A stretch of 63,182 nucleotides of DNA, the filler included, from Rozella allomycis CSF55 (Eukaryota): assembly GCA_000442015.1 (NCBI GenBank). It is 15 parts of 15 records of this genome, joined end to end, with 100 filler letters (N's around TTAATTAATTAA, not from the genome) between each part and the next. Parts side by side here need not be neighbours in the genome. Positions count along the whole stretch, not along the records: positions 29,321 to 33,358 come from KE560743.1; 14 more parts are not named here. One strand, given 5' to 3'. Below are positions 4,101-59,006 of this stretch, piece after piece. Made by a program: the position numbers and the translations under genes. Position 1 is the stretch's first letter. The number at the start of each line of letters is the position of its first letter. The notes under the pieces are model-generated. The model had not been told where the DNA came from and did not search any database. It saw only the letters and a list, made by a program, of their open reading frames with translations.

Positions 4101-7100
4101 TTGCCCTTAAATACGGGAAAAATAATATGGCAATAAAAAACTACGTCAAAGAAACAAGGAATTTTTTGAGATCAGTTGAACAAAACGATTGGGATGAAAT
4201 AGAAAGAAAGAAGCGACGTGCAAGTGAACTTAGAAGGACTATAAGTTCACTCGAAAGTGATTATCAATATCTTGTAAATGAATATGAAAAGTTAAAGTTG
4301 ATATATAATGACAACTATTATGGCGATAACAGCGGCGATATCTATACGAAATTAAGGGAGGCAACAAGTCAAAAGGATCGTTGTTACAGCAGAATAAGAT
4401 CAAGCAGAACGATTCTCACCGAAGAACTTAAAGCTCCAAAATTTATTGTTAGTCCCATTCCGAGAGAGGATGATGATGCATTAATAATCACTTTCTTTCA
4501 TTTCATGAAGAATCCAATTCTTATTTTTTCTGAACTTTGCTTGGAAGCCCAATATTCTCTTTGTCCAAAGGAATTAAATGCGTGGAACTCCTTCAAAGAA
4601 AAGCATAAGATTACTGGTACAAGTTGGATGGACCACATCGTTAGTTATAGTTCAAGAAATCTTAATCACGGACAAAATTTTCATTTTTCAATTGTAAAAG
4701 GAAGTATTGACGTTCCCAAAGATTTTGGACCTTCAAATATTGACAGTATTGACAAGAGTACCGAAAGAATTTGGTATCCCATGTTTCAGCCTTCATTGAT
4801 AAACTGTACTAAAGGATGTAACATTTCCTTTGTTTCTAACGAAATTTTGAAGTGTTTGTTTATCGAACCCCTTGGCCAGAGTTATAATAAGAATTTGTAT
4901 TGGATAAATCAATTTCCTTCTACTTTGGACAAGCCTTCGGATCGTGGAAATTTTGCCTATTCAAAACTACAGTTTATCCCTAAAGATTTCAGAAAGGATG
5001 AATTTCAAGCGATTGCATCCTTGAGATCATTTCCTTTTCAGCAAATTAGAAAATTGGCAGCCGGTTTAAAAGACGGAACTCTACAACTATCCAATCAATT
5101 AGTGAAAAAGACGGTGAGACAGGCTCTTTATCAAATCGGGGAAATTGAAGACTCATCATTTGTTTGGCATTTTGACTTGCATAGAGATTTCTCAGGCTCT
5201 AATGAAATTGATTCTCTTTTAGATAACTTAAGTTTAAGCGGAGAAGGCACACAAATGGCTCGCACGGGTATTGATGTGTTTAATGAAATTCTGAAATCTC
5301 TAGCAGAGGAGATTAAGTTTACACCAAGAAATTATGAAAATATTATGCTATTATCTGAGATAGGAAGATTTATTTTTAACTTGAGGGATATTGGTGAAGA
5401 TGTAAGAATGTCTTTTACAAACGTTGTGGAGCATTGGTTAAGACTAGTAAAAGATGAATTAGGAAACATTAAAAATACAGTAGAAGAAAATTTATATCTT
5501 AAGGCGAAAGAATGTCTTTTTAATGGATATGGAATAATATGCTTAGGAAGGGGTTCATTGACTGTAGAAAGTGGCAAATTGATTGTTAAATACCTACTTG
5601 GTTTTTATAATGGATTAGCGTATGAAGAATGGGCTAGAAACGACAAATGTTTGATGAATGCTTTGAAAAGTGTACGCGAGCTGGTCAATGATTGCATGGC
5701 CTATCAACTAGACAATATTTTAGATTTGCTCATTTACTCCAATCATGGCGGTGACATATTGAATTATGCTGTGAAGTCAATTTTTGATTGTGTACCTGAG
5801 GGTTTGAAGTGGACATATTTCAAAGATTCTGTAGTGTTTTCTTCTAACGTAGATGGAACAATATACTCTGTAAATACCTTTAAAGGAATATTTCTTGTAA
5901 ATGGAATTCCACCAAGTAGACTATCAAAAGAAATCAAGAGTCATCCATTATATAAAAGAACGTTTAAAGATAGAGATTTTGAAGTTGTCCCTGATTCAGA
6001 GCCTGGGGTTTGTAAGACAACAACTCCAGTTCAAGGATTTTATTACAAATTTAGCATTTCGAATGATGGTTTATTAAAAGTACAGGAAATAAATGAAAAG
6101 GACGGAACAGTTTTGGATCTAATTGATTACAATAGCGGAGATTTTGTTATTAGTGATGAACTTCCAGAGAGATTGACAACAGAATATAGTCATTGGTATG
6201 ATATCGAGAAAGAGATTATGGTTATAAGGGAAGTTGAATTTCATAAAAAGTTAATTTTTTACTTGATAACGTTTGATGATGATGTGATGTATTGCTATTA
6301 TGTTAATGAACATTTAAGATCCAGATCATTAAACAATCTGGTCGGTATTTCTAAAGATTACTTGAATAGATATGTTCATGTTGAAGATAAAGGAATGATA
6401 AAATTGCTTTCGAGATTTGAATATTCTTCATTTATTGAAACTATGAGAAATCCTTCTAACGTTCTAATGTATTACTTTCCCAGATTTCATTTAACATTTT
6501 ACCACACGGACAATAAGGTACACAGTGAAGCGTTCCCAGATTATGTTTTACATTCGCATCAGGTTTTACAAGGAACTTTGGAGTATTTTGATTCATATTT
6601 AGTATTAAGAAATGATAGAGACGAGTACAAAATAATCGTGCCAAAAGGAGTTGTAATTTTAGATAATAATAGGGTGAGGATCAGTTTAAGCGAGGATTGT
6701 AACGCACAGTTATCTTTTTACAGTTATAATATTAATAAAAGGACTGGGGAGCTATATGCCAATTCTATTTCATCTAGACTACAATTAGCAGTTATCTACG
6801 CGGCATCTTCTACATTCGTTATTAGCCCATCGAATAGAATGACTGGCACTGAAATGGCCATTGAATATTTAAAGCAAAGTTGGATCAATAGACCTTTAGA
6901 TATAAGTGAAAGCAAAGTAATTGAAAATTTGTTTAAATTTTCGCATGACGAACCTTTGCTAACAGAGTTGTGCGTTAAACTGCTAGAAGAATCACAATTA
7001 ACCAACATAATACATGAAAAAGCGCAATATGAAAGCGATAATAATAAAGATTTGCCGAATAAAGACGAGAATTTTAGTAGGGTTCATGTGGCATTGACTG

Positions 7101-10100
7101 AAGGGACATTGAGAGCCAAAACGAATATTAATCATCATATTAGAAGATCAGATAGCTTGAATAATAAATTTTATGGTAAAAGTGTAAAAGTTGGCGAATA
7201 TTTCATCGAAGAGAACTTTGTGACTGAGATCGAAGAGAAATTAGAATCATTTGTTGAAAAGCGTGTAAAAGATGAAATTAAACCATTTCCTTTTAATAGT
7301 GAAAATAAAAATGCAATAATGATTGACATTTATAAAGATTTGGAAAAAAGTTGGCTGGAAAATGAAAAGCGAGAACGTCTTAGTTCCATTCAAAGAGGTG
7401 AATTACTTGAATATCTAGAAAGTGTTTATGCCGCAGTTCAGAGTAGAAAAGAAGAAATTGAACGATACATTTATGACAGCATTGAAAAAGTTCCAAGTGA
7501 AGAAAGTGCCATGATGAATTGCTTCAAAACTATTAACCTTGCTGCGTCGGCCAAAATAACTGATATTTATAGGCTTGTTATTGACAAATCTCATCTCAAA
7601 TTAATGAATCCTTACCTTTGTAATGAAAGTGTTGACAGAATTCAGAAATGTTCCATTCAATTTTTAAAACTATGTGTGCTTTGCGATAAAATAGAGAGGA
7701 TTCAGAACGGTTTATCTGATAATTTATCAAATTCAATTTTAGCTAAAGATTTATTGTGTAAAAGGATTTGGAATGCGGAGTGTAACCCTAGGTGGCTGGT
7801 TTTTGAGGCCGAAAATGAAATGCAAATACGACCTATTCAATATCTTTTTGCACAATTTTTAATAGAAAATCCATTTTCCATTTGTCAGTTAAACATGGGT
7901 TGTGGAAAGACCAGGGTTGTTTTGCCAATGTTGATTATGCATTATGTTGAAAATAATAAAGTCCCGTGTGTATATGTTATGAATTCACTGTTAAGAGAAA
8001 ACATTGAATATCTGCATTTAACTCTGACGGCAAGCAGCCAGAATATTCAAGTCCTTGAGCATCCTTTTAGCCGCCAAGTTGAAATGACTGAAGATGATAT
8101 TTCTATATTTATGGATTATTTGTCTACCCCAAATGCTTGTTTAATATCTTGTCCTGAATACAGAATGTCGTTAATGTTAAAACCACATGAATTGAAGTTA
8201 AAAGGACAATGTCAGATGATGACGAAATTACAAGAATATATAAGAATGAATAAATTTGTAGAAATCTTCGATGAAAGCGATGCGCTTTTGTCCCATATTT
8301 ACCAATTAATTTATACGGTTGGCACCCAAACTGAATTGACAAAGTTTTTTGAAAGATCAGTAATAATTCAAGCGACCCTTCAGATATTAAACTCTAGTCA
8401 ACGTATTCATGATTATTTATCAGAGAATAAATTATTAAATTTTGAAAAGACAAAATTCGATGGTGAGTTATACAAGATAAGATTCCCTGTTGAACTGATG
8501 GCAGAAGGATTGACCGAAAGAGAAACTTGGATCAAAATATGTGAAATGATATTTTATGAATTAGTAGGAGGGGTTTTTGAAAATCTTGAGTGGATTAGCG
8601 TCGTGTTCAAACAGAGCAACAAAAACTTTAAACGAATGTTCAAGGAAGCTGTTTTCAATTTAAATTTTGATCCTTCGAAATTTCTAAGAAAAATTAATGA
8701 TGAATTTAAGGAATCCCATGTGTTAATGTTGCGCGGGTTATTCGCGCATGAAATTTTGTTATTTATTCTTAAAAGGAGATATCAAGTAGAATATGGAATA
8801 GATGTTAAACGAAGCAAAAGAATGGCTGTTCCGTATAAGGCTGCTGACATTCCCACCGAAAAATCAGAATTCAGTCATCCTGATGTTTGTCTAGGTTTAA
8901 CAATTTTGTCGTATTACCATAATGGATTAAATAAAGAACAATTGAGACAAGCGTTTAGATTACTTTTATCATTTGGATCAGTCAGACAAGAGAAACTCTA
9001 TAATGCATGGTATGATTCAATAAAAGCTAATCTTGATCAAAATGAGATAGAAATGATAGATAAAGTGAATAAAATTGACCCAACATCAAGAAGATGTTTT
9101 ACATAAGAGGTTTGGGAAATGTATTAAAGTAATTAACTTTTGGCTGAACTATATAATTTTCCCAATAGATACTATTCAATATCCTCAAAGAATAGCTGCT
9201 TCAGCATGGACTTTGACAAGTGGTGACCATTGCATTGGGTTCAGTGGTACTAATGATACTAGCAAGTTATTGCCCTCAAATGTGGTTCAACGTCAACCAA
9301 ATATCCAAGAATTGATATCAACCAATGGACTAATGCTGAATTGTATATTAAATCACTCAAAGTATTACTCTTTTAATATTGTTAATTTGACTTGGAAGGA
9401 GATAGTAAATTTTTGCCTAGAAAAACAGTCAAATGCATTAATTGATACAGGATCATTATTAGCAGGAAAGTCAAACAAAGAACTAGCGGAATACATTCTT
9501 TTACAAAATTCATTTATTAACTCTGACTTTAAAGGGATATGTTATTTTGACGTTAATTTTGGCACCAATGGTCAGTGGATGGTTATTGAGAAAGGCACAA
9601 ATAAAATAAATACTTTGGTTGACTCTCATATACATGAAAAGGATACATTTGTTATTTTTGATGACGCAAGATCTAGAGGTGCTGACATGAAGTTAAAAGA
9701 CGATGCCACTGCAGTCATTACATTAGGCCCGAAAATTACTAAAGATAAATTTATGCAAGGGGCGGGAAGAATGAGAAAACTGTTAGATAATCAAAGACTG
9801 ATTATTATTTCTTCATTTGAGGTTAATGTATCAATCAAAAAGGCGATAAGTAGTCTGAATCATGTGCCTACAATAAATGATGTCATACAGTGGATTCTGC
9901 TTAATACTGAAAAGACTGTCATGGAAGGATTACAAATGTGGACAAGTCAAGGTTTACAGTATGCAAAACAAATGAAAAATCCAGATTCAATAGTTTGTAA
10001 TGAAAGGATCAACTTAACTGACCTTTATGGATTGAAGCATTTTGACCGCTCTTTAATGGATGAATACTTGCCTATTGCTGACAATTTGCCAAACACCAAA

Positions 10101-10850
10101 ATTTCTCAATCTTTAAGAAATCAATTAGTAAATTATGGTGCTCAAGTTATTGTCTCTTCTTCAGGCAACAATGAACAATGCGAAAGGGAATCAGAACTAG
10201 AAATTCAAGAGCAGCAAATTGTTATGAGAGAATACCCAACGGAAAAGGCTGTTTCTGAACATCCTTGGAATTATCGTGACCTATTAACAGGAAAAGGAAT
10301 TAATGTGGACATTTATAACTTGTATGAAACAATCGGTAGCCTTTTTGGAATTCCCAATATTGAAATGCTTGGTTGGAACAAGGACAGAATATATTGCACT
10401 AAAAATTTTTACAAGTCCATTGAGCGAAAAGCTCCAATTGATTGCTTTGCGAAATATATTAATATGATTTTAGAAAGTCCTTCTGGTGAAATTTATATTC
10501 TATCCGATATGGAAGCGGACGGGTTCCTTTACGAATTTTCGATCATTGAAACTGACTGGAAATTATATAATTTGACATTTCTGTATGAAAAAAATGCATT
10601 TTTTAGATTTGCCAAGGATTTCAAAAAGATTTGCGACGATAAACTAGTCACCTTAAAGTTTTTCAATGGTGAAACGATGTTCAACTCTGATGGTCAATAT
10701 CGCTGTCTTCAAAATTTAATTTCTCAAAATCACTGCGAATCAATTGTTAAAGACTTTCTTAATGTACGCGGCACTCTTAGGAAATACGAATCGTCACATC
10801 TTCAAGAAGTCATCCAACGGGCGTCAGACATCGAACTTGCATCAAGATAA
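1146..10850 (+). CDS. Giant (~3000 aa) DUF3638/DUF3645-family P-loop protein; spliced at the 5' end, interrupted by a hAT fragment plus gap and by a +1 frameshift near 9085 (possible pseudogene or allele)
   Basis: PRWLVFEAENEMQIRPIQ...QLNMGCGKTRVVLPML (DUF3638); RMAVPYKAADIPTEKSEFSHPDVCLGLTILSYY (DUF3645); GFSGTND, DDARSRGADMK, QGAGRMRKL, EQCERESELE. Intron 3437-3465 joins the 2634 and 3524 ORFs in frame. Linking the 1146-1694 ORF to this gene is inferred. Confidence 0.85.
1695..1793. other. Assembly gap linker N44-TTAATTAATTAA-N44 (recurs throughout the window)
   Basis: The same six-frame-stop linker sits in nearly every N run; it is artificial. Confidence 0.97.
1794..2258 (-). mobile_element. 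hAT-like DNA transposon 5' end (BED-finger transposase N-terminus), truncated by a gap
   Basis: CKACGKTVYWGRQKVISHKRASC zinc finger and FAALCYRTGIPFQVA, typical of hAT transposases; subterminal CTTACC/GGTAAG inverted repeats at 2190-2250. Confidence 0.65.
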
Positions 10851-29220: not shown

Positions 29221-29320
29221 NNNNNNNNNNNNNNNNNNNNNNNNNNNNNNNNNNNNNNNNNNNNTTAATTAATTAANNNNNNNNNNNNNNNNNNNNNNNN
29301 NNNNNNNNNNNNNNNNNNNN

Positions 29321-31069
29321 GTAAAAAGGATCATTGGGCGCGTCATGAATTTTTTACTAGATGATGGGATTTCGGCTTTCTTTTTTCTCTTAATTGGTGT
29401 TTTTCTAGACATTAATTCGTCCTTTGGATCAGGAGACGGAGATGGGAGATCTAGTGGCTGTACTTGAATTTGAATCGGATCTTCTTTATTTAATACCTTT
29501 TCATTCGCAGTATTTTTGTTAGAATCGTGAAAAATTGTAGCTTTCCCTTTTGTCTTAGAGGGAGTTGCCATGTTTATTAAATTGTACCTCAGACTTGTCG
29601 ATTTTTCCTTTTCAGATTCATTCCTTCTTCTAGTTGGCTTGATGGAATTTGATGAATCAATTTCAGAGTTTTCTTTTATTTCACCGATTTCCTTTGATTC
29701 AATTTTGAGGACTAGTTTTTCTTTTCTTTGCTTTGATCTCTTTTTCAACGGCAAGTTTTCTTCCAACGGTTTTAATATCTCAGAATCAACTTTTTCTTCC
29801 TCTTTTTCTTTATCATTGGAAGTAATTTTCTCTTTATGCATTGGATGCTCTTTTTTAATCAGGTTAAATTAATATTTAAAAATATTACTTGCTTTTTGTC
29901 AACTTTGCTAGCTGGCATAGAATCTGTCTCAATTTTCGATTTTTTGAATATCTCTGGCAGGGGTTCGTCATCTTCCTTTGCGATGTTATCGGCGATCGGT
30001 AGAGGTTTAACGGCACCCGACTTTCTTTTCAACGGAGTCTCCAAAGTTTCTGACAAGGATGATTTTTCATTTCCAAAGGTTAAAGCAATGTCATCATCAT
30101 GCTCATTATCGGTCTCTTGTACTACGTGGCAAGATGAAGGTAAAGCTTCCTCAAGCTCAAAAATAGGTTTGGTTTTTCCAACAATCAATCCCAAAGCTGG
30201 GACGATCGTTTGATATTTTGTTTGATCCCATTTTTGTATTTTCCATGCATTAAATGTGTCCTCAATCCAAAGGTGGTTAACAATTTTAACATGACTGAAT
30301 TCTTTCGCTTTTTGGAATTTAACAGTCGTGGAGCTACATTCATCATTACAGTTTTAATTACTCATTACAAACTAAATGGGTATTTTCTGGCGAAAATGTG
30401 CCAGTGTAAGTCGCACCCATCTCATTTATCATGAATTTTATTCGTTCTCTTGCCATTCCTGTGTAATTTGATATAGAAATTATCAGCTTGTCCGCGTTTG
30501 GAATAATTTCGCCTCTCTTGGGATACATATGAATATGCATCTTTGGATCATGTTTAACACCATCTCTTAGAACATCAAATATCCAAAAAGTGCTGACGAC
30601 CGTTTTCCCACTTTGTAATGCCTTTCATGAAAATGATGTGTTAAAAATACCCTCTCGTAGTTAGTATCCAATCTAGAATCACATAAAACATGTGTGCTCG
30701 AATCAAAATCGTAAACAATTTGGCCTCCTTGACTTTCGATTGATTCTTGAACCACCCTTTTATCCTTGAAATTATCCCAATGATTAGAAAACAAAAAACA
30801 TCCTTTTAGTATATCCCCCTTTGGTGCCAATAGATTATTGTTAATTCCAGCTTAAATTTTATCGATGAAAACTGTTTACAGGTAGGTTCAAAATTGTAGA
30901 AACTGGTATCTAACAGCATCTCCACACTGATAGAGTCTTCAATCCATCGAAAAGACACTACTTTGGCGTTTCTATGTCTTTCCAAAGGATTCGTTGTGAT
31001 TATATGGGTGGCATCCTCTTTCATCATAATCACACTTCCCTTTAGTGTCTTAACTTGTTCTTCCAACAT
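29321..31069 (-). CDS. Multi-BRCT DNA-damage scaffold protein (Brc1/Rtt107-like), 3' end in gap
   Basis: Four N-terminal BRCT-like repeats (ATHII...VVSFRWIEDS; ISISNYTGMARERIKFMINEMGATYTGTFSPENTHLVC) followed by a charged linker. Confidence 0.8.
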
Positions 31070-31750
31070 CCTTCGCTTTATTTTATCCTTTATTATTTTG
31101 CTAATAATTGTACAATATCATCACAAAAGTAAAAATAACAATTATCGAACATTTTAGTTTCAACTATGCCACGGTTTGTACCGAGTTGTTGCGTTCCGGA
31201 TATTATTATTGTTTAAACCAAACTCTCATAACTCATTCCATTATATTCCCTGTCAACAGTGATTATGACAATTTACACTAACGTCATTCAGAGAATTGAA
31301 ACACGGACACTTACAAATTACAATGAAGACATTAAACTGAAGAACTTATTAATTAATGTTAAGTTAAGCATTAGAATATAAGTATTCCTTTATAAAAAAA
31401 TAAAGTTATTTCCAATTNNNNNNNNNNNNNNNNNNNNNNNNNNNNNNNNNNNNNNNNNNNNNNNNNNNNNNNNNNNNNNNNNNNNNNNNNNNNNNNNNNN
31501 NNNNNNNNNNNNNNNNNNNNNNNNATTTATGCGGGAAATAAATGGTTGAAATTTAAAATAAGGGCTCAATAAGGCTTTGACGACCTTTTTGTGTTTTTAA
31601 AAAGATCGAAATGTAATTGTTAAATTGTATTATTCTTTCGGCTGTAATTCATCAACTCAATCTGAACAAAGAATTTCGAGGCTGAGTATTGCAATTAGCG
31701 AATTTGGCATGCGGCACGTGTACCTTTAATAATTTTCACAAAATTTTCAT

Positions 31751-33195
31751 ATGAGGTTCAAATTCTGTGCATTCATTTATTTTATCAGCGCATTTCTTTA
31801 TATTTCAGCCTATAAATTCAATAGACAAGAAAAAAGAATTGTTGCAAAAGCTACTGCGAAAGCGGCGATGAAAGCAATTGCAGTCACTCCAGTAGCAACA
31901 GTAGCGTCAGCTGTAGCGACTATGTATCATCCTCTAGCTGCATTGGCTGAAGTTACTAAAAGAAATCAGACTCAAGCCAAATACCACATGACCCAAGCTG
32001 GACGCGCCTTCTTAGGAACACTAGCAAGTCCATTTCTGGTATTTTTGACACCTATTATTAAATATCACGAAACAACCAATCTAATTATCAATACTAATTA
32101 TAGTTGTTCTGCTATCATAAACAGGAACAACCCATCTGAAATATTCAGCACTGGTTACGAAATATTTACTGCCTTGGACGCTCAATTTCTAAAGCAACTG
32201 CTATTAAAAGTTAAATTTGAAGGAGAAGCTAGCGCATTTCAAAAGGGCCCAGCCAACGAATTCTTTTTTCTTTTTGCGGCGACATTGCAAAATGAGCCTT
32301 TCGATTTGTTCGATTATGATAACAATAGATCTATTTTCAAAATCAAACCGGGGATAAAATCAGATGAAAGGATTAAAAGATTTAAAACTCTTGGAAAAAT
32401 TCTTGGATTCTATGCCTACAAAAAAATACCCATTGGAATGGCATTCCCGAATTCATTTTACAAAATTTTGCTTAAAAAACAATTGTCAAGAAAGGACTAC
32501 TCTAAAGATGATCAAATCGCATACAATAATATGATGAAACTGAAAAGTTGTTCAAATGAAGAGCTGGATGATATGTTTATATATTACCCGCCTCCAGATG
32601 ATGAAAAAATGGTCAATCAAATCAATTTAGAAGACTATATCGAGTACCTATAATTTTTACCCTGTATTTAGAAAGCAATCACTTTTTCAGATGTACGGAT
32701 ATGCCAAAGATGAAATTGACGCGGTTGCTGCTGAATTTCAAAGATTCGTAAAGCCCTCTATGTTTAAATCGCCTATAAAATTAAAAGTGAGTATAATTTA
32801 TCATTTTTACAGCTAGAAATTGTTAATCGGAGAGACGGATTTCCATTTAATCAAGGAAAGTCTAATCGCCAATGTCAAACTTTCATACTATTCCCGTTCC
32901 GACTTGGTCATATCGCTACTATTTAAATATATACGACAATTAAGCGATGAATCTTTGAAGAAATTTTGGCGATTCATCTCCGGAAGCGAGTATTTCGCTG
33001 CGTCCACAAAATTGACATGGTCGGTGAGCAAGGGTACATCAGAGATGGCGCTCCCATCAGTTTTTACATGGTAGCAAGCATAAATTATTAAAATGTAGTT
33101 TCAGGCACGTTATCATGCCTAGGTATACAAATTATGAATCTCTGGCCACAAAATTTGATCAAGCAATTGAAGCAACAGACTTTGCACTAGCTTAA
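31751..33195 (+). CDS. HECT-domain E3 ubiquitin ligase with a predicted N-terminal signal peptide
   Basis: MRFKFCAFIYFISAFLYISA; VKFEGE...GPANEFF; FKTLGKILG...FPNSFYKILL; KKFWRFISGS; removing intron 33071-33098 gives LPSVFTCFRHVIMPRY...TDFALA*. Confidence 0.85.
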
Positions 33196-33327
33196 ACCAA
33201 TGTATTATACAAATAAATTATACCATTTGCAATAAATGTGAATTTTAAAATTAAATAATTGTAATCGCACTGAATAGATTAATAGAAAGGAGGGGCGAAA
33301 GAAAAATTTTTTGTATCTAGACGAAAA

Positions 33328-33358
33328 TGTTTTCATCCAGGTTCGAACTGGAGACCTT
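33328..33358 (-). tRNA. 3' half of a tRNA, probably tRNA-Val; the rest lies in the gap
   Basis: Minus strand AAGGTC TCCAG TTCGAAC CTGGA TGAAAAC A then TTTT: perfect T-arm, Val-like acceptor 3' strand and a Pol III terminator. Anticodon not visible. Confidence 0.75.
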
Positions 33359-33458
33359 NNNNNNNNNNNNNNNNNNNNNNNNNNNNNNNNNNNNNNNNNN
33401 NNTTAATTAATTAANNNNNNNNNNNNNNNNNNNNNNNNNNNNNNNNNNNNNNNNNNNN

Positions 33459-36400
33459 TGAAAAGTCGAATATAATTGAAAAGTCAAATGTTTTAGTAAA
33501 TGAAAAGTCAAATATTCTGGAAAAGTCGAATGTTCTGGTGATTGGAAAAAGCGGAAAATCATTATACGTCCAGTCAACCTTCAAAAACGTGGCAACAGTG
33601 TACTGCAGCCGCCAAACAAGCTGGCTGGACCTTGTGCGAGAGATCAAGAGCCACGGCATGCTAGTCTCTTGTACGCGCGGCAAGCAATTCAAGCCCAAGA
33701 AGAACCCATTGACGTTGTATGTGAAGAATGTGCACGAGGTATTGATGGATGCGTACGAGTCTAGTACTGTGTATAGTTTTGTGTATGGATTGATTAACAA
33801 TAATGGGTTTTATGATGAGAATGGCGAGTGGATTGCGTGTGAGGTGGGTGTTGTGTTGGGGAGTGAGAGGGCGATTCAGTGTGAGAGGCTGGGTGGGTGG
33901 TTGGATGTTGTTGTGGTTGGGGAGATGAGGGATGAGGAGGTTGGTGGTTTTATTAGGGATTGGTTGATGAGAGGCGTTAAAGACGTTGATAATATTGGAG
34001 ATGAGGGTGTGGAGAAGATTGTTGGGAAGATTATGCAGGTTTATTTGGGGTGCAAGTGTGGAATGAAAACATTGAATAAAATATTAAAGAGGCTTGTAGG
34101 TAGAATAAAGAGGGAAATGAGTTTTGATGAGATTATTGTTTGTGTGTATAATCTGTGTGAAAGGTTTATTGGGGATTCAGACGTTGCAAAGTCTAGAGAG
34201 ATCAAGAGAATATTTAGCAAGAGGGAAGAGATGAAGAGTGTTAGAGAATTGAATTTTGAAAAGTTGATGATAGACAATATGATAATAGTTGGCGAGAACA
34301 ACAGTGGCCGAAGAAGCCTCCTGAACGACCTTCAAATAGAAATATTCGAGTTGAATGAAACATTAAACTATCAATTCAAGCAATTCTCTAATCAAATAAA
34401 GAATATTCTTAATTGTAGGGGAGAAAAGATGGTTGTTGTGTATGATTACCAGATTAACGATTGGATATTGAATTGTGTGCATTTGTTTGTGAGTAGTTTG
34501 GATGTAAAGTATTTGATGAATGACGATGATTTGAAGCAGGTTGATGGTGAGAGGCTGGTGAAGAATGAGCTGTATTTTGTGTTTGTGGTGAAAAGTGTTG
34601 GAGTGTTTGAAGGGTATCCAGGGATTTTGAATGAAATGAGAGTTGTTGAATTTGAAGGAGTAAAGGATGTTAAAGATATCAGTGTTGTTAGTGAAGGGAG
34701 TGAAGGAAGAGAAGGGAGTGAAGAAAGTGATAGAATAAGTGAGAGTGTTATTCAGAGTAAATATTATTAGTGCTTCTATGTTTAGGGTTTAACAATTGCA
34801 AGTCATTTAAGAATTCATTTGATTTGTGGGTTGGATATAAACTATTCTTGAAAATAAAGAATAGAGAAATGGATAAAATAAAAAAAGAATTAGAAAGATA
34901 TGAAAATGGATTAAAAACAATAAAGAATGCGAATAAAGTAGTTAATGATCTAAGCAGAGAAGCAGAAGAACAAGAAAAGGAACTAATAATCAAACAAACA
35001 GAAGCAGATGAATCCTTAAAACTAATTACCTTTAAAATGAACGATTCATTAAACAAGCAAAAGATAATCCAAGAGTTAGTTTCAACATTGAACAAGGAAG
35101 AAGAGGATTTGAAGAAGAGGAGAATTGAAATTGAGAATGAGTTGATGCAAGTTGAGCCAGCTATTAGTAAAGCGAAAGAAGCGATTGGAAAAATTAAGAA
35201 TGAGAATTTGAGTGAAATTAGATCACTGAGATCGCCGCCTAGTTTGATTAGGGATTTGTTGGAAGGGGTTTTGATGTTGATGGGTATTTATGATACTTCG
35301 TGGACTTCAATGAAATCATTTCTAGGTAAAATGAATTGAGGGGATTAAATTAGGTAATTCAAGTGTTCAGGTTTTAATTAGGTAATTGATTTAGTTAAAC
35401 TCTCAAAGGTAAAAAGACGGTCAAGGATGAAATAATAAATTTCGATGCTAGGAACATCAACAAAGAAACAAGAAAATCTATAGAAAAATTAATTCAAGAA
35501 AAGAGTGAAGCATTCGACCCCATAAACATTAAACGATCATTCGTAGCTGCCGAGCCCCTAGTATTATGGCTCAAAGCGCAATTGCAATACTCGATCGTCA
35601 TTGAAAAAATAAAACCATTAGAAGGTGATTTAAACATGCTGAACAATTCACTGAATAAATCGAGAGGCGAGATTGAAGAAAAGGAGAGTGAATTGAAAAG
35701 ACTGGAGGCCGAGTTGGAAGAGTTGAGGGTTGATTTTAGTAGAAAGACTAGTCAGACGGAGAGTTTGAAGATAAAGTTGGGGGTTGGGAGGGAGAGGATT
35801 GAAAAGGCTAGCATGCTGTTGAGCAAGTTGAGGGATGAGCAGGAGAGGTGGAGTGTTGTTGTTGGGGAGTTGGAGGGGAGAGTTGGGGTGTTGGATGAGT
35901 TTGTATTTAAGCGAGTTGAATTAATCATCAAAGGGGAAGTGGGAGAAGAAGTAGAAGGAGTGGAAGGGGAAGAAAGTGTTGACATTGTAGAAGGAGTTGA
36001 AGTAGAAGGTGAAGTTGACAATCACAATATTGATACCCTTTCAGCAAGTAATAATCCAGTGGATGTGGCATTGATGAGATTGAATGAAACTATTTTGGTA
36101 AGTTTGATTAGAGATCCATTAGATATTTGCATTGATTATTTAAAAGATTATCAAATTATAAATTACAATGATTCTTCACTGTTGAGACAATTAGAATTAG
36201 CCATGAAATTGGGAAATAGAATAGCTATTAGGAATATGAATGAAATACCAAGTTATTTGGGTTATTTGATTTCTAATATTTCTAAAACAGATGAGATTAA
36301 ATTGTTGGATAAAGAAATCAAAATTTCTTCAGGTAGAATAGATCTATTGTGGCATAGTTAATAGGTACCTCAGATCTATAATCTAAACAAGGGTTTAAAT

Positions 36401-38949
36401 TGGTTTTAATTACAAAAAATAAAGAAATAAAATCATGTGAATCTATTTTGGATTGTTTAACGATAATTGATTTTAATTTAACGAGAAGAGTGTTGAGTAA
36501 TAAATTTCTAGATTTGATTGTGAATAAAATGAATCCAGAAAATCAATTGAAAAAAGAAGAAATAAATTTGAAGCAAAAAGAATTGAATTTCAAGTTGATA
36601 GAATTGGAAGATGAATTATTGAAGCAATTGTCAGAAACAAATGATCTTCTTTCAAATGAGCCACTTTTACTTTCACTTGAAGAGATTAAAATTCAGTCTT
36701 TGAATATCAAGAAAATATTGAATGAGAATTTGATTTTGCTAAAGAATCTTCAAAACCAGTTTATCCAATTTAAAGAAATTACAGACTTTGCAAGTAGATT
36801 TTATTTTGCTTGTGAGAAACTGAAATCATTCAATTCAAACTATTTTGTTTCTGTGAAGCAATTTGAGTTTGTATTGTTGGAAATTATTTCTGTTGTTGAT
36901 TCTAACTTTTTCAAAAGAGAATTTGTTAAATCTGTTTTTAGTATTCTGGCTAGGTTTGTTGTTGAAAGAGATCAATTAGCTGTGTATTTGTTTATTGTTA
37001 AAGAAATGTATGAGCAGGTTGTTAATCAAGATGAATGGGATTATCTCAAAGGTAAGCGAGTTGGAAATGTTTTGTGAAAGGGAATGTAAAGAAAAGTAAA
37101 TCTTATGGCACTGCTGATGGTAATTCAAATGGTAAAGTGAGTAATTCAACTATTACTTTATCAAATTCATTCTTTGAAAAGTATAAAGTAGAATTGAATT
37201 CATTGGCTAATTGTAAATTCTATTCAAAATTAAACTTTAATGATCCACTAAAATGGATTGAATGGTTAAAATCTTCAAATCTAATCTCAAACTTTCCATT
37301 TCCAAATTTAACGTAAATCACATTATAAAACCTTAAGAGATATTTCCAGAAACTACTTTTAATTAAAATATTCAAACCAGAATTATTCACAAATTATTTA
37401 AAGTCATTTATTTTGAATCTTGTTGGATTAAATAGTCTTCCTTGCTTTGATCTCAACTTGAATTCTATTTATAAAAATGGCTTGCCCATTCTTTGTTTTA
37501 CTTTTCCTGGTTCTGATCCATTTTCTCACATTAATTCTATTCCTAATCCAAATCCACCAATTATAGTAACGTTTCATTTTTGTTTTAATCTAGGTACCTC
37601 ATCTATTTTTTTACTAATCTAGGTACCTCATTTAGTAAATTTCTGATCTAGATCTCGCCAAAAATTTCTAAAAATAATCTATTCAAGATTCTTACAAAAG
37701 CAGTGAATGACAATAGTATTGTTTTGATTGAAAATATTCAATTTGTTGAATTCCAAGATGAAATAGTTTCATTCCATCAAAACAATCCATTATTAACTTT
37801 ATTCATGANATCTGGTTTCTGATTATTGCATTAAAGTTTCCTTTGAATCTACTTTTAACATTAAATTAAATTGTAAAAGATTACTCAATGGTAATTCACT
37901 TTAAACTATTCCAATAGATTACATTGATGCTAAAGAGTTGAATTTGAATAGATGTTTCAAAGTTGCATGGCTTCATTCTATTTTAATAGCTAGAAAATCA
38001 ATTATTCCAATTGGCTTCCTCAAAGATTATGAATTCAGCGATACAGACTTTAAAATAGCCATCAAAATAGCGTCAACTACAAATGAAACCAGTTTATTCA
38101 AAAGTTTACTAATATCGTCTGCTTATGGTCCTAAAATTGATAATAAAATAGATCTTGAAAAATTAGTTATTCTAGTCAACAGTATCTTCAATGCTAAAGA
38201 TTTCAAACTGGATGGGCTAAAAGCTTCGTCTGATGTGAATGTTTCAAGTATTACAGGTATTCTGCAGTGGTTGGATAATGCTGCAGTTGATGACTTTGAA
38301 GCAATGTGTTTGCCAGCGAATACACTTGTCATGAAATCTCTGTTGGATTTAGACTACACTTTGAAACTTTTGCGATCAGTAAATGAATTTAAATGTTTTG
38401 TTTCTGATTAGTTTTAAATCTGTGGTTGGTAGTAGCGATGGGTTGAAGAGTCAATGGCTGGAAATCAAGAGTCAGTTGGCCAAGTTTAGAAATAATGAGA
38501 CGAGAAGAAGCAGTGAAGGAGATGAAGCCTTTGTGGTAGAGTTTTGTGAATTGGAGTGCCAGTTTGGATGGGATTTGGTCGAGTTTGTTGACAAGCAGAT
38601 GGAGAATTTGCATTCTTTGCATGATGAAACTCCTGACAGGTAACACACAGTAACATAAATTAATTCTTAGGTAAATATAGCCCAATGAATTAAGGTAGCT
38701 GGCTATTATTCTGGGAAGGTCCATCGTCAATCTCTGACTACTTTAACAGCATCTACCAGAACATTTCGCATCAATACACTCTCCCAACCACCTCAAAGGA
38801 TCCAGTCACCTTGGAATTCATGTTTAATCCAGANAATTCATGTTCAATCCAGATTCATTCATCGCTGCAGCCTCACTCCTCACCTCCATCGACTCGCCAG
38901 TCGCATGTCTCTCATTCCAACCAACGCCAAACGCTATTCACATATCATC
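33459..38949 (+). CDS. DYNC2H1: Cytoplasmic dynein-2 (retrograde IFT) heavy chain, AAA3 to C-terminal region, highly divergent
   Basis: [10 protein letters not shown]; stalk/[99 protein letters not shown]. Confidence 0.92.
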
Positions 38950-40944: not shown

Positions 40945-43900
40945 TTAAAAAGCAAATGAATCATTTCTGAAAATATCCAAGAGGGCATCTTCCAAGGAAT
41001 GTCTTCCGATAGCAAAGTCCAGAATAATACCCTTTGATTTCAACGAGAGCATTTTTTCGATAACTTGACTGATAGGCATTGAAAATGATAATGAAAATGT
41101 TAAACACTTGTTGACGGACTGCTGAATGGAGTAAGTTGCTGATCTATCGCCTTGAAGAATAGTATCCATCACTTCAGAAACAATGTTATGAGCAGCATCA
41201 ACAAAGGTGATGTTTGCCTTGTAGCCATTTGCAATCTTTTGAAACAATTCGTGCTCTGTTCCGATAGCAGATAACTTTCCTTGATTAACAACGGCAATGC
41301 GATCGCAGCTTGAAGTTTCATTGAGATAGTGGGTGGTCATAATTGTAGTTCTATTTTTATTCAACTCGCGAACAGTGCACCACATTTTGTGTCTAGCCAA
41401 AGGATCCAAACCAGTTGACGATTCGTCAAGAACAACTAGATCTCTGTTCAACATGATTGCAATCAAAGTGCTGACTTTACGTTTTGTACCACCACTTAAC
41501 GATCCACATTTATAGTTTGCAAAAGATGAAAGACCCATCGCTTGTAATAAATCTTTTATATATTCATCAGCAACTTTAGAACTTTGTCCATTTAATAAGA
41601 GAAATATTTTGAGATGATTGTGAACAGTCATTGAAGGAACTAGAAGATTATCAAATTGAGGACAAACACCCATTTGACGAATAGCATTGAGCCTGTTTGC
41701 ATGNCGAATAGCGTTGAGCCTGTTTGCATGAACATCTAACTCTTTTAAATGAACAGAGCCAGATGTAGGTGTCATTTGACTAGTAAGCATATTCAAAGTT
41801 GTTGTTTTCCCACATCCATTGGGGCCTAATAGAGCTAATAATTCATTATTTTTGACGTCCAAAGAGAGATTGTTAACAGCAATTTTCTTTTTAAATACTT
41901 TGGTAAGATTTGATAAGCTAACTGAAACTTTGGGATCAGATGAAGTCGACGGCGCAGCACTTCTAAACATGTGTTTCAATTCATTTATAGCGGCCATTAA
42001 AAGAAAGATCAAACTCCAAACTAAACATGAAATGATTTTAGTATCGTAATCAAAGAAGGGTGTAAGTTCAGCCGTAGACCAAAAGGGTAAGTAAGTATAG
42101 ACTATAGTGTTCAAGAGTTTAATAGTTTCAATATCAAGGCTTGAGGAAAGTAATGCCAATGTAGCAAAGAAGATGATGAGACCATAATTAACGATAGTGC
42201 TTAAAAAGGAAACGGTACTTGGCCTGAAAGAAGAAGATGCCAGAATAAAGCAAAAATAGAAAAAGAAGTATGAAAAGTAGAATGATCCGTGTCCATCATA
42301 AGGCCCAAAATATAAAGGAATATAGATTGGAAGTGTTTGAATTAAACAAATAAAAAGTTTTGAAATCCAAATTGATCCCAGAGGAACCCCACAAGAGAGC
42401 ATTAAATAGTCAAACATTTGGGAATTTTCAGAGAGTTTTGAAGACACGTTCGAATACAATTGACTCATTAAAATGACCAATAAAAATGGGACGATTCCTC
42501 TAGCGATTAAATTTAGCACCATTGATGTATTTCCCTTGATGTATTCAATAAAATTGACTGTTGGAGGATTCTCATATTCCATTTGAGAAAATTTGTGAAG
42601 AAAATATAAAGGAGCGGCATCATAACCATTAAATGTATTCAAGACAATATGATCATCATCAACATTTTCAATCCAACCTAAATTCAATTCATTTTCAACG
42701 TTTTCTTCAAAGTGATTAAATTTTAATAACTTTTCATCGTTTGTTTTGTAAGAAAATCCATCAATTAAGAGATTATCAAAAAGTTGATCAGAAAGTGTGA
42801 CATTTGAATTTATAGAAACTTTGCTACTTGATTCAGAAATTTTTGTTAAATCGATTGGTTTCATGTGTTTACTAAGATTCATTATAGCAAGCAATAAAAG
42901 AATTGAAGGGATCATTGAAAATAAATAATTTGAGAATTGGGAAGAAAACTTTAAAAGTTCAAATTTAGAATAGAGAAGAGTTTTTTTGATAAAAAACAAT
43001 TTCTCAAATTTCGGAATCACAATTTTAGAAATTTCAGAATTTTGCTCATTTTGTTTTTTCTCGTTTCCAACTTTATCGAATATTTTATCGAGTCCATTTT
43101 CTTTCAAAATGAAACTTTTAATCATTGATTGAATTCCTTTGTCATTTTCAAATTCTTTAATTAATTCAAGGACATTTGAAGGAAACGAAAATTCAGAAAA
43201 GTTTCCAGAAATTTTGACTTGAAACCCTTTGCAATTTCTATCTTCAAACCAACTAAGAAACAAATCTTGATTAAAGTTTTCATACTTCTCCACAGATAAA
43301 TTGTATCCAGTGCTGAAAATAGTCTTAATAAACTTTGAAGTTCCAACGCAGGTGATTTGACCACAAGTCATCATGGCTTTCCTGTCAGCTAACAGATCAG
43401 CTTCATCCATGAAATGAGTACACATTAAAATTGCCTTGTTGTTTTTATTTCTTTGAATGAAATTCCAAATAACTCTTCTGTTGTCAGCATCAACTCCACT
43501 CGACATTTCATCTAAAACAACCAATTCAGGGTTTCCAACAAAGGCGATTGCGATTGAAACTTTTCTCTTTTGACCGCCAGAGAGACCTTTAACTTTTTGA
43601 TCAATAATTTCNCACCAATTCAGGATTTCCAACAAAGGCGATTGCGACTGAAACCTTTCTCTTTTGACCGCCAGAGAGACCTTTAACTTTTTGATCAATA
43701 ATTTCATTCATTCTCAATTCATGAACACTCTTTTGAATTGATTCTAAAACTAATCTTCTTTCCAATCCTTTCATTTCTGCATAAAACTCTAAATGATCAC
43801 GAACAGTCAATTCATCATAAAGAATATCATATTGTGCACAAATTCCAATCTTTTCTGAAATTTCGCTTCTTCTTTTTGAGTCTTTCCCAAAGATTGAAAT

Positions 43901-46001: not shown

Positions 46002-48198
46002 TTAGACTATTGAAGGATAGGGATGCGAAACAAAACTTCCGCGTGAAAAAGATAAAGGCACGATGCATGGAAGGTAATAGCGTGTTATTTCAGTTAAATT
46101 TCGAGCATCCAAAAGCAAAACAAAGCTGGATTTGATATGAGAATTATAAACGATTGATACTATCACACCTTCATCTTCAATCTCATGAGGAACTCCTGTT
46201 GATGTTACACCCTGAGGCTGGAACATGACTTCTGTTTTTGAAGCAGTAAATGGGGAATGTTCAAATTCCTTTGCAATAAAAATGGGCTCGCCCGGATAGG
46301 AAAAATCTATATAAATTAGAAATCACCTGATACCTTCTTTCCAGATTACTGACTTTTCATCTTCTCCTTCCAAATCAATCTTTCGAATGGCATTCCAAAT
46401 TAAACCAACTTTTCCGCGATCTTCTTTGTGCAAAGAAAGACCATATACATAGCGATGCTTTAAGCCTTGTGTAAAGGGATTAATACATCCAAGTTCCATG
46501 GGATCAGAAGAAATGAATTGAAAATGCATGGTAGGAAAAGATGATAATAATCCACCACAACTCAAGTACTTGGCGCACTCAATTGATATATCTGAAAGGA
46601 TAAATCTTCGCGTAGCAGAAAAGGGTAAAGCACCCATAGTAGCTGGATCACGGAGATTCTTTATCGTTAAATAATCAAGAATTGAATCATCTTCATATGT
46701 ATTACAATCAACAACAAGGGAATTGTTAATCGGATCTAAAGAATCATATTGAGATTTGCTTACCATGAAAAGAGTTGAGAATCGAAAAGAAGAAACAAGC
46801 TTCCGACTTATAAATTGCTGATAAACACCCTTCATTCTTGTCAATTACATAGAACAATAAATCCTGGTCACCTTGATATTCAAGAATCTCTGACAAAGTC
46901 TTATTTCCCATAGAATAGTTTGATTCAAATGGTGCATTTTTGTACACATATGGAATCAATGGTATAATTATATAATTTGAAGTTACAGAGAAAGTATAGA
47001 GAAAGGAAGGCCTCTAAAATTTATCATTTTTAGAGCGTTTACCGCTAGAAAGGAAGCCACCAGTTTCCCGCCATAACGACTTTCAGATATTTCTCTGGTC
47101 ATTTTAATTATACGGTACTTGCAAAGTTCTTTCGATTTCACATCAGAAAAGTCCATTATTATTTGATACCTTTTAGTTGAAGTCAATATAAATTACATCT
47201 CCTTTGATGACTTATCGAATACACATGTCGAACTCATGACATTTCCTTTGGTATTAGGCACAAGGCTAGGAATATCATAAACTTTTTTGGCTTCCAAAGT
47301 CATTGGATCAACCTCTTGAACAACAGAAACACCATGACCAACAATGACTAATTTTCCTTGATCTCCTCGATAGGATCCCAATGGGAATTCAGGATACACG
47401 GCACCATTTAATACAACATACTCTGGATCAATTTCTACATAGCCCGACACTTTATCTTCTTTTGTAAAAAAGGACTTCAAATTAGCAAAAATCTTTGATA
47501 TCCAACCACCTGCAGGTAAAGGTAATTTTGTTTTCCAAAAAGGAGCAATCAAAAAATATCTTTTCTTGTTGACCATTGCAAACCTGCTTCTTGTTCGCAT
47601 TGTTTGCTGCTCCCTTCTTTGTATATCTCCAAATGAAGCCTTAAAATCATCATACAACCTTTTGTTGATAAGGCGGGATTGAAAATTAATATTTCCATCT
47701 TTTCGAAACTATTTAATTTTTCAAATATTTAAATACTTCAATTTTCAACAAAATAGGTAATGCATCGAATAAGTGTCCGACAGGAATAGTATCCTCCCTT
47801 AAGGTTCCATGCGATAACACCTTGCGAAAAGTATTTGTAAAGGGGATATCAAATACACCGGGATGCAAATGAAATAGAATACCTTATTCCTTTAACTAAT
47901 CATCGTTACCATTTAGCCATGAAAGAGGCCAATTTTCTTTTCTTTCTTCGCTAAAGTTGTTTTCAGGGGGTATTACAATCCTTTGGGTAAAGTCTTCAAT
48001 TGTCTGCAATGCTCCAACATGATTTTCCTCTTTAACATTCCAGCCAATATCTTTTGGTGAAAACTTTTTTGTTCGCACAGTGGAAGGAGGCGTCTCCATT
48101 GTTTTTACTTTGATACCTTTCTCTGGTGTTGTTTGCCGCGTAACAACTGACGATGAAGTTTGTTCCTCTGTTACCAAAATTGTTTCACTATTGTTCAT
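46002..48198 (-). CDS. Carotenoid cleavage oxygenase / RPE65-family homolog lacking its iron ligands
   Basis: GHLFDALP; EVDPMTLE; ELGCINP...HRYVYG; PGEPIFI; EDEGVIVSIVY...SFVLLLDARNLTEITR. Confidence 0.85.
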
Positions 48199-58205: not shown

Positions 58206-59006
58206 TTAGCACCTTCTTGTTGTCTCATAAAATGAAAGTTTAGCCAATTTAGACATGAAACTAAGATTCGTCAAAGAAATGGCGTTGCCTGGTTTCTTCC
58301 ACCCTTCGAGATACGGTATTCTTTCTTCCAAGAAAAATGACCTCGTGTATGATGATGGTACTTTACCATTTACTTGGAACAAGTAAAAGTATAGGGCAGC
58401 TTCACCTGCAGCAACTACTCTTTGACTATTGGAAAAAGTGAATTTTGGATCTTTTCTGGAAATGTCGCATTCAACATGCTTTCGATAATTTATTATATCT
58501 GAAACGCTTACAGAGCCGTTTCTGTCTCCATGTGATATCAAATCTTCAATCATAGAAGGTTGAGCGTTAACACAGTCATAATTATATTTCTCAGAAAAAT
58601 CACCTCTCGACAAAGACACGTCGTGCTCCAAAGCCTTCTCACTTGTCCTTCCCGGTACATTTAAGAAATCAAGATCTAGGTATTCACCGTATGTCTCATT
58701 GTTTCGTGCCATTAAATCATAAGCCCGGTTAACAATTCTTCTTCCAAATGTTTTATCCACATTATAAGCGTTAAACATAGCATCAACCATCTGTTGTCTT
58801 GTAATGTTCTTACCGTCCCTTGGCAAAAAACCATGATTGGCCATTGAATTCAATCCGGGACACGGAGAACGGACTCCTACACCTCGTGGTCCATTTCGTA
58901 TATATTCCGGGCTTAAATAATTTGGTTCAACTTGATTACGGGTGTTATTACCCTTTTCATACCATAGACCAAACATGATTAAACCTACAGCAAAAATCAA
59001 CGTCAT
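58206..59006 (-). CDS. Heme-thiolate peroxidase (chloroperoxidase / unspecific peroxygenase, short type)
   Basis: RSPCPGLNSMANHGFLPRDG (PCP thiolate ligand) and EHDVSLSRGD; N-terminal hydrophobic signal or anchor; intronless. Confidence 0.93.
   Translation of the reverse strand: MTLIFAVGLIMFGLWYEKGNNTRNQVEPNYLSPEYIRNGPRGVGVRSPCPGLNSMANHGFLPRDGKNITRQQMVDAMFNAYNVDKTFGRRIVNRAYDLMARNNETYGEYLDLDFLNVPGRTSEKALEHDVSLSRGDFSEKYNYDCVNAQPSMIEDLISHGDRNGSVSVSDIINYRKHVECDISRKDPKFTFSNSQRVVAAGEAALYFYLFQVNGKVPSSYTRSFFLEERIPYLEGWKKPGNAISLTNLSFMSKLAKLSFYETTRRC

Follow-up and report, generated by a model that had tools for sequence, protein, structure and literature searches.

A short, divergent HECT ligase gene of Rozella allomycis with a signal-peptide-like N-terminus: a candidate effector gene

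How does a gene for a HECT ubiquitin ligase come to begin with what looks like a secretion signal? The question is raised by a gene at positions 31751–33195 (+ strand) of a stretch of DNA of 63,182 nucleotides (nt) from Rozella allomycis CSF55, which is made of joined pieces of that genome and is called the window below. HECT ligases are cytosolic enzymes, and Rozella is a sister lineage of the microsporidia. A preliminary description of the locus reported a hydrophobic, signal-like segment in front of a compact HECT domain and proposed that an intracellular parasite exports the enzyme into its host; the premise is correct, as Rozella allomycis lives obligately as an endoparasite within the cells of the water mould Allomyces. 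As read from the sequence, the gene is an intact, lineage-specific and very divergent minimal HECT ligase gene of 452 amino acids (aa). What had been observed was confirmed, its interpretation is partly supported, and the product appears to be a plausible candidate effector. In a parasite that lives inside host cells without a wall of its own, a HECT ligase bearing a secretion signal would be a direct lead to the manipulation of the host by Rozella.

The coding region, 31751–33195, consists of four exons with a coding sequence of 1359 nt, i.e., 452 codons and a TAA, and no internal stop was found in the spliced frame of 452 codons. Exon 1 (31751–32643) encodes the hydrophobic N-terminal segment, a linker that is basic and rich in Ala, and the greater part of the HECT N-lobe, and is followed by intron 1 (32644–32671, 28 nt, GTACCT..ATTTAG). 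Exon 2 (32672–32786), placed by the profile score of the spliced protein, is followed by intron 2 (32787–32816, 30 nt, GTGAGT..AGCTAG), and exon 3 (32817–33070), which matches positions 187–273 of the Pfam HECT profile, encodes the C-lobe as far as the second base of the catalytic Cys codon. Intron 3 (33071–33098, 28 nt, GTAGCA..ATGTAG) lies in phase 2 inside that codon, and exon 4 (33099–33195) supplies the third base of Cys421 and the remainder of the C-lobe, including Phe449 (33181–33183) and the TAA (33193–33195). All of these features are on the + strand. Retention of any of the three introns breaks the frame, with a TAA at 32651–32653 for intron 1, an in-frame TAG at the end of intron 2, and TGG TAG for intron 3. 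The sequence-level statements of the preliminary description, including its coordinates and the intron at 33071–33098, were all found to hold.

The possible gene models were scored with a home-built HECT profile made from 82 of 159 HECT homologue proteins, from which five members of the Rozella family, proteins shorter than 400 aa and those without x-[TS]-C in the last 60 residues were left out. The four-exon model reached 159.3 bits in a single alignment of residues 114–447 to positions 33–383 of the 389 in the profile, and in this one continuous alignment both HECT lobes are complete and colinear. The score was 154.7 bits for a variant with the acceptor at 32691, 148.6 bits in two pieces for a model with the 64-nt first intron by which the other copy is publicly modelled, 129.9 bits for a model without intron 3, and 104.3 bits for the annotated exon-1-only product; exon 4 adds 29 bits to the score. 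The stretch that is lost under the 64-nt intron is retained in a 34%-identical Rozella paralogue (VTIENVDDYI vs VNQINLEDYI). Because it has the top profile score and the paralogue retains this stretch, the four-exon model is the best supported of the predicted structures. The gene exceeds what chance would produce, since its exons are colinear on the profile, its introns end the frame, and 10 of the 20 codon changes in a second copy are synonymous. A ciliate-type code, in which TAA and TAG are read as Gln, was considered by analogy with other organisms that have tiny introns and was rejected on visual inspection: a TAA closes the HECT tail at the correct place, and the DNA belongs to Rozella.

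Tiny introns seem to be common in the window. They were surveyed by heuristics under which most junctions between open reading frames (ORFs) have several candidates, and the junctions used here are those fixed by Pfam colinearity. At the junction in the dynein AAA_9 domain (between profile positions 114 and 115), a single candidate intron of 43 nt, GTG..AG, lies at 36349–36391. At the RPE65 junction (between profile positions of about 395 and 402), there are three candidates of 20, 47 or 63 nt with the donors GTG, GTC and GTA, with coordinates of 46307–46326 or 46307–46353. Nothing useful was found in the literature on intron statistics of Rozella.

The public annotation conceals the catalytic half of the HECT gene. 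The public model of the window copy (P0152, 300 aa) ends at the TAA in intron 1 and is without the catalytic lobe, and the models P0001 and P0151 (EPZ37008.1) use the 64-nt first intron, run into intron 2 and stop at its TAG. The public models of this family are accordingly best explained as truncated because introns of 28–30 nt were left unspliced. Further Rozella models may be truncated likewise, in which case secretome and domain surveys built on them would miss such genes.

With the Pfam profile PF00632, exon 1 alone gives an E-value of 3e-12 and 47.3 bits against a cut-off of 23.9 (profile 3–112, residues 175–280), exon 3 gives 4.8e-5 and 23.6 bits against the same cut-off of 23.9 (profile 187–273), and exon 4 gives 0.15 (profile 275–303); the three segments are in colinear order. 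The compact HECT domain claimed earlier, for which a Pfam search had been proposed as a check, is borne out by the score of exon 1 and by the 159.3 bits of the spliced protein over both lobes. The reported absence of C2 and WW domains was also found, as residues 1–174 have no match to C2, WW or any other Pfam domain at E up to 1. An AlphaFold2 (AF2) model of exon 1 only, built from a 47-row alignment, has a mean predicted local distance difference test (pLDDT) score of 74.7, with values above 90 from about residue 110, and HECT domains are all of the top matches listed when Foldseek is run on this model. Among 48 sequence matches of exon 1 to solved structures, the best are NEDD4/Rsp5 HECT domains (E 6.6e-11 to 2e-10, residues 126–277), with E6AP close behind (1.1e-9) and HUWE1 far weaker (1.9e-4). 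The margin of NEDD4/Rsp5 over E6AP is small, so any assignment to a subfamily is tentative. A phmmer search of PDB sequences (E up to 1) with exon 3 alone gave 0 matches. Relative to the sequences of the HECT profile, the N-lobe insert lacks about 15 residues. Fused forms longer than this protein were not found, which is weak evidence. By sequence and fold, the predicted domain is an ordinary eukaryotic HECT domain.

The codon of the catalytic Cys is assembled from TG (33069–33070) and T (33099), so that Cys421 stands in LPSVFTCF, aligned with the HECT Cys column (100% Cys in the comparison set by selection of that set), and the split of this codon by intron 3 had been described correctly. Its place at 421 of 452 residues fits a catalytic Cys about 30 residues from the C-terminus. 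The other two residue-level claims also hold: the residue two before Cys421 is Phe, where 75 of the 82 profile sequences (91%) have His, and the protein ends in DFALA before the TAA, with Phe449 at −4. A column of the 82-sequence alignment was taken as conserved when its occupancy was at least 90% and a single residue made up at least 80% of those present; of the 59 columns that qualify, 35 are retained and 24 are changed. Still in place are the catalytic Cys and its T-C-F context, the motifs LP and PxY, and the −4 Phe. Lost are the D (99%) and G (98%) of GxDxGG, the His (91%) before the Cys, and, in the TGxxRxPxxG loop of the C-lobe, the P and G (each 100%). Because 24 of 59 columns are changed, the N-lobe insert is shorter and exon 3 is without a PDB match, the predicted ligase activity is not assured.

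The same losses would be expected if the HECT domain were decaying or catalytically dead, i.e., a pseudo-enzyme or a young pseudogene, whatever its N-terminus does. Some of the changed columns are 96–100% conserved in the 82 sequences, the N-lobe insert is shortened, and exon 3 alone falls just below the Pfam cut-off (23.6 vs 23.9 bits) and has no match among PDB sequences. Against decay stand the 452 open codons over four exons in a genome of 33–35% GC and the retention of the catalytic Cys, T-C-F, LP, PxY and the −4 Phe. The other copies of the gene also speak against it, as synonymous changes account for half of the codons at which the copies differ, with no disruptive change among them, and the same shortened insert in the 34%-identical paralogue indicates that the family has been retained over a long time. 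A dead enzyme is regarded as improbable.

At least two near-identical copies and one older paralogue are known from databases and from the contigs of DNA runs. A near-identical database cluster holds three sequences, RKP18680.1 (309 aa), EPZ37008.1 (310 aa, on a 10.9-kb contig) and the 300-aa model of the window, and exon 1 is 94% identical to a partial protein of Rozella allomycis CSF55. An older paralogue, EPZ33819.1/RKP20394.1, is 34% identical from residue 91 on and has the same shortened N-lobe insert; the paralogue count from the database clusters is three near-identical sequences plus this 34% paralogue. In the contigs of DNA runs X2 and X7, the locus occurs in two forms. They are identical over 31525–32475 (951 nt) and differ in patches at 32476–32539 (8 places), 32869–32949 (14) and 33261–33318 (9), with 31 places listed; their depths are 146 vs 59 and 134 vs 70 in X2, and 255 vs 185 and 230 vs 175 in X7. 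The patch in exon 1 corresponds to the public second copy (K242N, Q244S, R247K, Q255P). In total, 20 codons differ between the copies, 10 of them synonymously and 10 non-synonymously, with 0 stops and 0 frameshifts; 13 of the differing codons, 7 of them synonymous, are in exon 3, which is unannotated. These codon differences, including the 13 in exon 3, support the prediction that exon 3 is translated and under some purifying selection. The two forms may be alleles or paralogues, and the patchy divergence would fit gene conversion between copies.

The part of the protein that raised the question of export precedes this domain. The product begins MRFKFCAFIYFISAFLYISAYKFNRQEKR, and residues 1–20 (31751–31810, +) resemble a signal peptide in sequence, hydropathy and the helix of the AF2 model, with MRFK, an apolar core, ISA and a possible cleavage site between A20 and Y21. 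There are 17 apolar residues between K4 and K22, with Kyte-Doolittle values of up to 1.57 in 19-residue windows. By eye, the layout is that of n-, h- and c-regions, namely R2 and K4, a core of 13–17 residues (F5–Y17/Y21), and I-S-A before Y21, with small residues at −3/−1; a core of this length is short for a membrane span. The N-terminal hydrophobicity ranks second among the 159 HECT homologues, and 3 of the 40 ATG-ORFs of at least 100 aa in the window reach its value, the gene itself included. Residues 2–26 form one helix in the AF2 model (pLDDT 61–72), and residues 23–107 have no confident structure (pLDDT below 50). A basic linker rich in Ala, Val and Thr and without a known domain follows at residues 22–113 (31814–32089, +), of which the end, from residue 91, is common to the paralogue. 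The hydrophobic signal-like N-terminus and the Ala-rich region after it are thus both present as first described; that the N-terminus acts as a signal is what its resemblance to signal peptides suggests. A topology with three membrane spans (apolar windows 1–24, 37–66 and 84–105) was dropped as unlikely, though not disproved: the third window lies where the homology with the paralogue and the solved HECT constructs begin, the second is rich in Ala, Thr and Pro, and AF2 is unconfident over residues 23–107.

The N-terminal residues are confined to Rozella in the searches made. A HMMER scan against 1.84 billion representatives gave 201 matches at E up to 0.001, and none of the 201 covers residues 1–75 outside Rozella, the next alignments starting at 76, 89 and 98. 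The best non-Rozella match has an E-value of 5.6e-12, and homology outside Rozella is confined to the HECT domain. A metagenome scan for orthologues gave 79 pattern matches and 0 relatives, and the ESM Atlas gave no usable match for residues 1–120.

The preliminary description had named an upstream exon extending the N-terminus as an observation that would overturn it. Such an exon is unlikely, as judged from the surrounding DNA, because there is an in-frame TAA at 31730–31732, no AG occurs from there to the ATG at 31751, and the adjoining upstream gene lies on the minus strand. This neighbour, a divergent gene with BRCT domains (29321–31117, −), leaves about 630 nt for the upstream region of the HECT gene. 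A run of 107 N between the two genes (31418–31524) has room for about 35 codons at most and leaves a small doubt. A 4294-nt contig of DNA run X1 extends 2447 nt past 31525, and the run of N is therefore spanned by this contig.

Could the segment instead be an intron? The 69 nt at 31756–31824 (+) form an in-frame, stop-free GT..AG segment, the removal of which deletes the hydrophobic segment and gives a protein starting with MRQEKR. With this intron, or with a downstream start, the gene would encode a soluble, short cytosolic HECT of the parasite, and what looks like a signal peptide would come from reading T-rich non-coding DNA as codons. Exactly this start, with ATGAG joined to 31825, is given in P0151 (EPZ37008.1), the public model of the second copy, and as the copies have no listed differences over 31525–32475, the two public models would differ by prediction and not by sequence. 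The composition of the 69 nt (GC 0.28, T 0.45) is like that of intron 1 (0.29/0.46) and intron 2 (0.27/0.43), with exons at GC 0.35–0.40 and T 0.28–0.30, and T is enriched at all three codon positions of the segment. Roy and Penny (2007) state that stop-free introns of a length divisible by three (3n) are readily taken for exon, and also that exon is miscalled as a 3n intron. The features of the segment as an intron are less typical. Its donor is GTT, vs GTA, GTG and GTA in this gene, GTG at the dynein junction and GTG/GTC/GTA at RPE65; its length is 69 nt, vs 28–30 nt in this gene and 20–63 nt for the candidates at the dynein and RPE65 junctions; and its retention leaves the frame open, unlike that of the three accepted introns. 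The same annotation treats the segment as coding in the window copy (P0152), and the models that remove it are poor elsewhere, with the lower-scoring 64-nt first intron and intron 2 read through. We therefore consider it unlikely that the segment is absent from the protein, and it is probably translated.

If it is translated, the segment might hold the enzyme at a membrane instead of sending it out. With an uncleaved N-terminal signal-anchor, the HECT domain would stay on the cytosolic side of one of the parasite's membranes, such as that of the endoplasmic reticulum (ER), the Golgi or endosome, or the outer membrane of mitochondria. Such an anchor would take the place of the C2 domain by which Rsp5/NEDD4-type ligases bind membranes, and the ligase would act on membrane proteins of the parasite with the E1 and E2 of the parasite. 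By the positive-inside rule, the more positive flank of a membrane segment is cytosolic. The flanking charge is ambiguous here: the N side carries about +3, and the 15 residues after the core have a net charge of about +5; the basic cluster after the core (K22, R25, K28, R29, K33 and K36 vs E27) fits a cytosol-facing signal-anchor at least as well as a cleaved signal. With the 17 apolar residues between K4 and K22 followed by this charge, which exceeds that of the N side, a C-terminus in the cytosol is favoured. An anchor needs no extra membrane crossing and leaves the enzyme with E1, E2 and ATP; the single helix of residues 2–26 in the AF2 model fits it, and the nearest solved relatives, the NEDD4/Rsp5 HECT domains (E 6.6e-11), act at membranes. 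By contrast, R2, K4, the short apolar core and the I-S-A that precedes Y21 are features typically seen in cleaved signals. For a housekeeping ligase at a membrane, recognizable orthologues would also be expected, and none was found over the N-terminal 75 residues, with 0 relatives in the metagenome scan; the HECT domain is, moreover, unusually divergent. An anchored ligase of the parasite is, in our estimation, a serious alternative of rather low probability.

The remaining reading, and the most likely of those considered, is that the segment is a translated signal and that the ligase is directed to the host, secreted or displayed on the surface, and charged by host E2~Ub at Cys421. We regard this as possible, at somewhat below an even chance. 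The N-terminus would be translated and act as an ER signal, and the enzyme would exit the parasite cytosol by the secretory pathway and be released, or be presented on the surface of the plasmodium, which is intracellular and has no wall. It would there use the E1, E2 and ubiquitin of the host, ubiquitin passing from E2~Ub to a thioester at Cys421 and from there to lysines on host proteins. From the features above we infer that the segment is translated and serves as a signal; which E2 would be used, which proteins would be targeted, and how the host-derived membrane that surrounds the parasite would be crossed are matters of speculation. We know of no function of a HECT domain in the secretory lumen, given its dependence on E1 and E2. 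This lack of a luminal role, together with a signal-bearing copy under constraint, would place the site of action outside the parasite. The profile of the gene is effector-like, with orphan residues 1–75, a recent duplication with patchy divergence, and strong divergence overall.

Several observations weigh against export. They include the losses at conserved HECT positions and the doubt about activity that follows from them, the MRQEKR start and the T-rich, intron-like composition of the first segment, and the basic cluster behind the apolar core. The life of the parasite adds a further difficulty. A review (PMC6317583) describes Rozella as a wall-less intracellular parasite and places it in a compartment formed by host plasma membrane pushed inward; secretion alone would therefore stop short of the host cytosol, with a further membrane to cross. 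The fuller proposal is that Rozella exports a stripped-down HECT into its fungal host or onto the surface of that host, that the enzyme belongs to a small, fast-evolving family with a recent duplication, and that it loads itself from host E2~Ub and marks host proteins. We give this proposal a rather low probability.

The surroundings of the gene and the other parts of the window were also inspected. The HECT gene lies on a piece of 4038 bp (29321–33358). The linkers between the joined contigs consist of 44 N, 12 bases and 44 N, with 14 such pairs (e.g., 33359–33458 and 29221–29320), and one linker core, at 33403–33414, reads TTAATTAATTAA, a six-frame stop linker. As the contigs are merely concatenated via these linkers, genes on separate pieces are not genomic neighbours. 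The depth of DNA-run contigs climbs at both ends of the HECT piece, at 31525–31586 and 33323–33358 (in X7, 639 and 1576 vs about 379), and the contigs of X1 and X2 diverge from the window sequence at 33350; repeated sequence seems to flank the HECT gene. Rfam gave 0 matches on 31525–33358, ARAGORN found 0 genes in the whole window, and the one RNA run that carries the same species label (X10) yielded no match to the locus.

On other pieces, long ORFs at 33700–36360 (+) have weak matches to dynein heavy chain (AAA_7/8/9, MT stalk), with AAA_9 at 1.7e-15 in 36382–37074, and the + strand of the dynein ORF DNA is very C-poor (C 6–10%, G 26–32%, GC skew 0.54). In an ABC-transporter gene, at 43567–43687 (−), about 45 nt (GAAATTATTGATCAAAAAG...) are repeated on both sides of a single N at 43612; the repeat looks like an assembly join with overlapping ends, not an intron, and single Ns elsewhere in the window may mark similar joins. 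A giant ORF of 1886 aa at 3446–9103 (+), together with flanking ORFs at 2628–3437 and 9069–10847, carries DUF3638 (6.4e-45) and DUF3645 (1e-14). An ORF of the Peroxidase_2 family of heme-thiolate peroxidases at 58209–59006 (−; E 4.4e-48) has a strongly apolar start, MTLIFAVGLIMFGLW..., and its product is another candidate for a secreted or anchored protein.

With which known systems can the Rozella protein be compared? It shares with NEDD4/Rsp5 (PDB 5c91, 2xbb, 3olm and 5hpl) the bilobed layout, the catalytic Cys and the −4 Phe, and NEDD4/Rsp5 HECT domains are also among its top fold matches. It differs from them in having no C2 or WW domains, in the Phe that replaces the His before the Cys, in the loss of GxDxGG and of the C-lobe P..G residues, and in an insert that is shorter by about 15 residues, and its signal-like N-terminus is foreign to that family. 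The Rozella paralogues EPZ37008.1/RKP18680.1 and EPZ33819.1/RKP20394.1 belong to the same short, divergent HECT family with the shortened insert and with homology from residue 91; their public models, of 300–316 aa, are without the region of the catalytic Cys, and the model of the second copy deletes the hydrophobic segment. In the available text of Marin 2018 (PMC5913265), 6 HECT genes are reported for R. allomycis, one of them unclassified and highly divergent, with no accession given, and signal peptides or transmembrane segments are mentioned 0 times. The genome paper of Paramicrosporidium holds no text on introns, secretion or ubiquitin.

Among the HECT homologues, a few proteins looked at first like further signal-bearing short HECTs. 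P0003, a metagenome protein of 450 aa with a signal-like N-terminus, WW and HECT, is a singleton that is 44% identical to an ordinary Rsp5/Pub1-type ligase; P0104 comes from a single contig; P0095, from Flabellula, has a hydrophobic start, and a second isoform of the same transcript group has a WW-containing N-terminus instead; and the apolar start of P0084 looks, by eye, like the first strand of a C2 domain. None of the four establishes a known class of signal-bearing short HECTs. Distant HECT matches were also seen in P0011, a 703-aa metagenome protein named leucine-rich repeat protein by its source, and in the P0030 group, a 9-member ENA cluster of 723 aa with an apolar start; these are possibly further HECT domains in unusual contexts.

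No signal-bearing HECT effector of a eukaryotic parasite was found in the literature, where the Rozella genome paper (James et al. 2013) may yet mention one; parasite-secreted RING ligases and ubiquitin enzymes are on record. According to PMC5976635, the intracellular parasite Trypanosoma cruzi secretes an E3, SPRING, which works with the E1 and E2 of its host; SPRING is of the RING type, without a thioester intermediate, in contrast to the HECT of Rozella. Secreted E2/E3 activity is given for Trichinella in PMC5117777, and predicted host-exposed ubiquitin hydrolases and RING families for microsporidia in PMC5423893. By analogy, this precedent for ubiquitin enzymes secreted by parasites would support the export of the Rozella protein.

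The preliminary description had compared the protein with the bacterial effectors SopA (Salmonella) and NleL (E. coli), the former of which appears as a HECT-like E3 among the references of PMC5117777. The comparison stands for the proposed strategy and function, a Cys-dependent E3 of a pathogen that works on host E1, E2 and ubiquitin. It does not stand for the family: SopA and NleL are absent from the 48 sequence matches and from the fold matches listed, all of which are eukaryotic HECT domains, and the Rozella protein is a true eukaryotic HECT with spliceosomal introns, not a convergent look-alike. SopA and NleL are delivered by type III secretion and carry no ER signal. If the reading proposed here is true, the Rozella protein would be the first example from a eukaryotic parasite of a HECT-type effector with a classical ER signal, and the eukaryotic counterpart of SopA and NleL.

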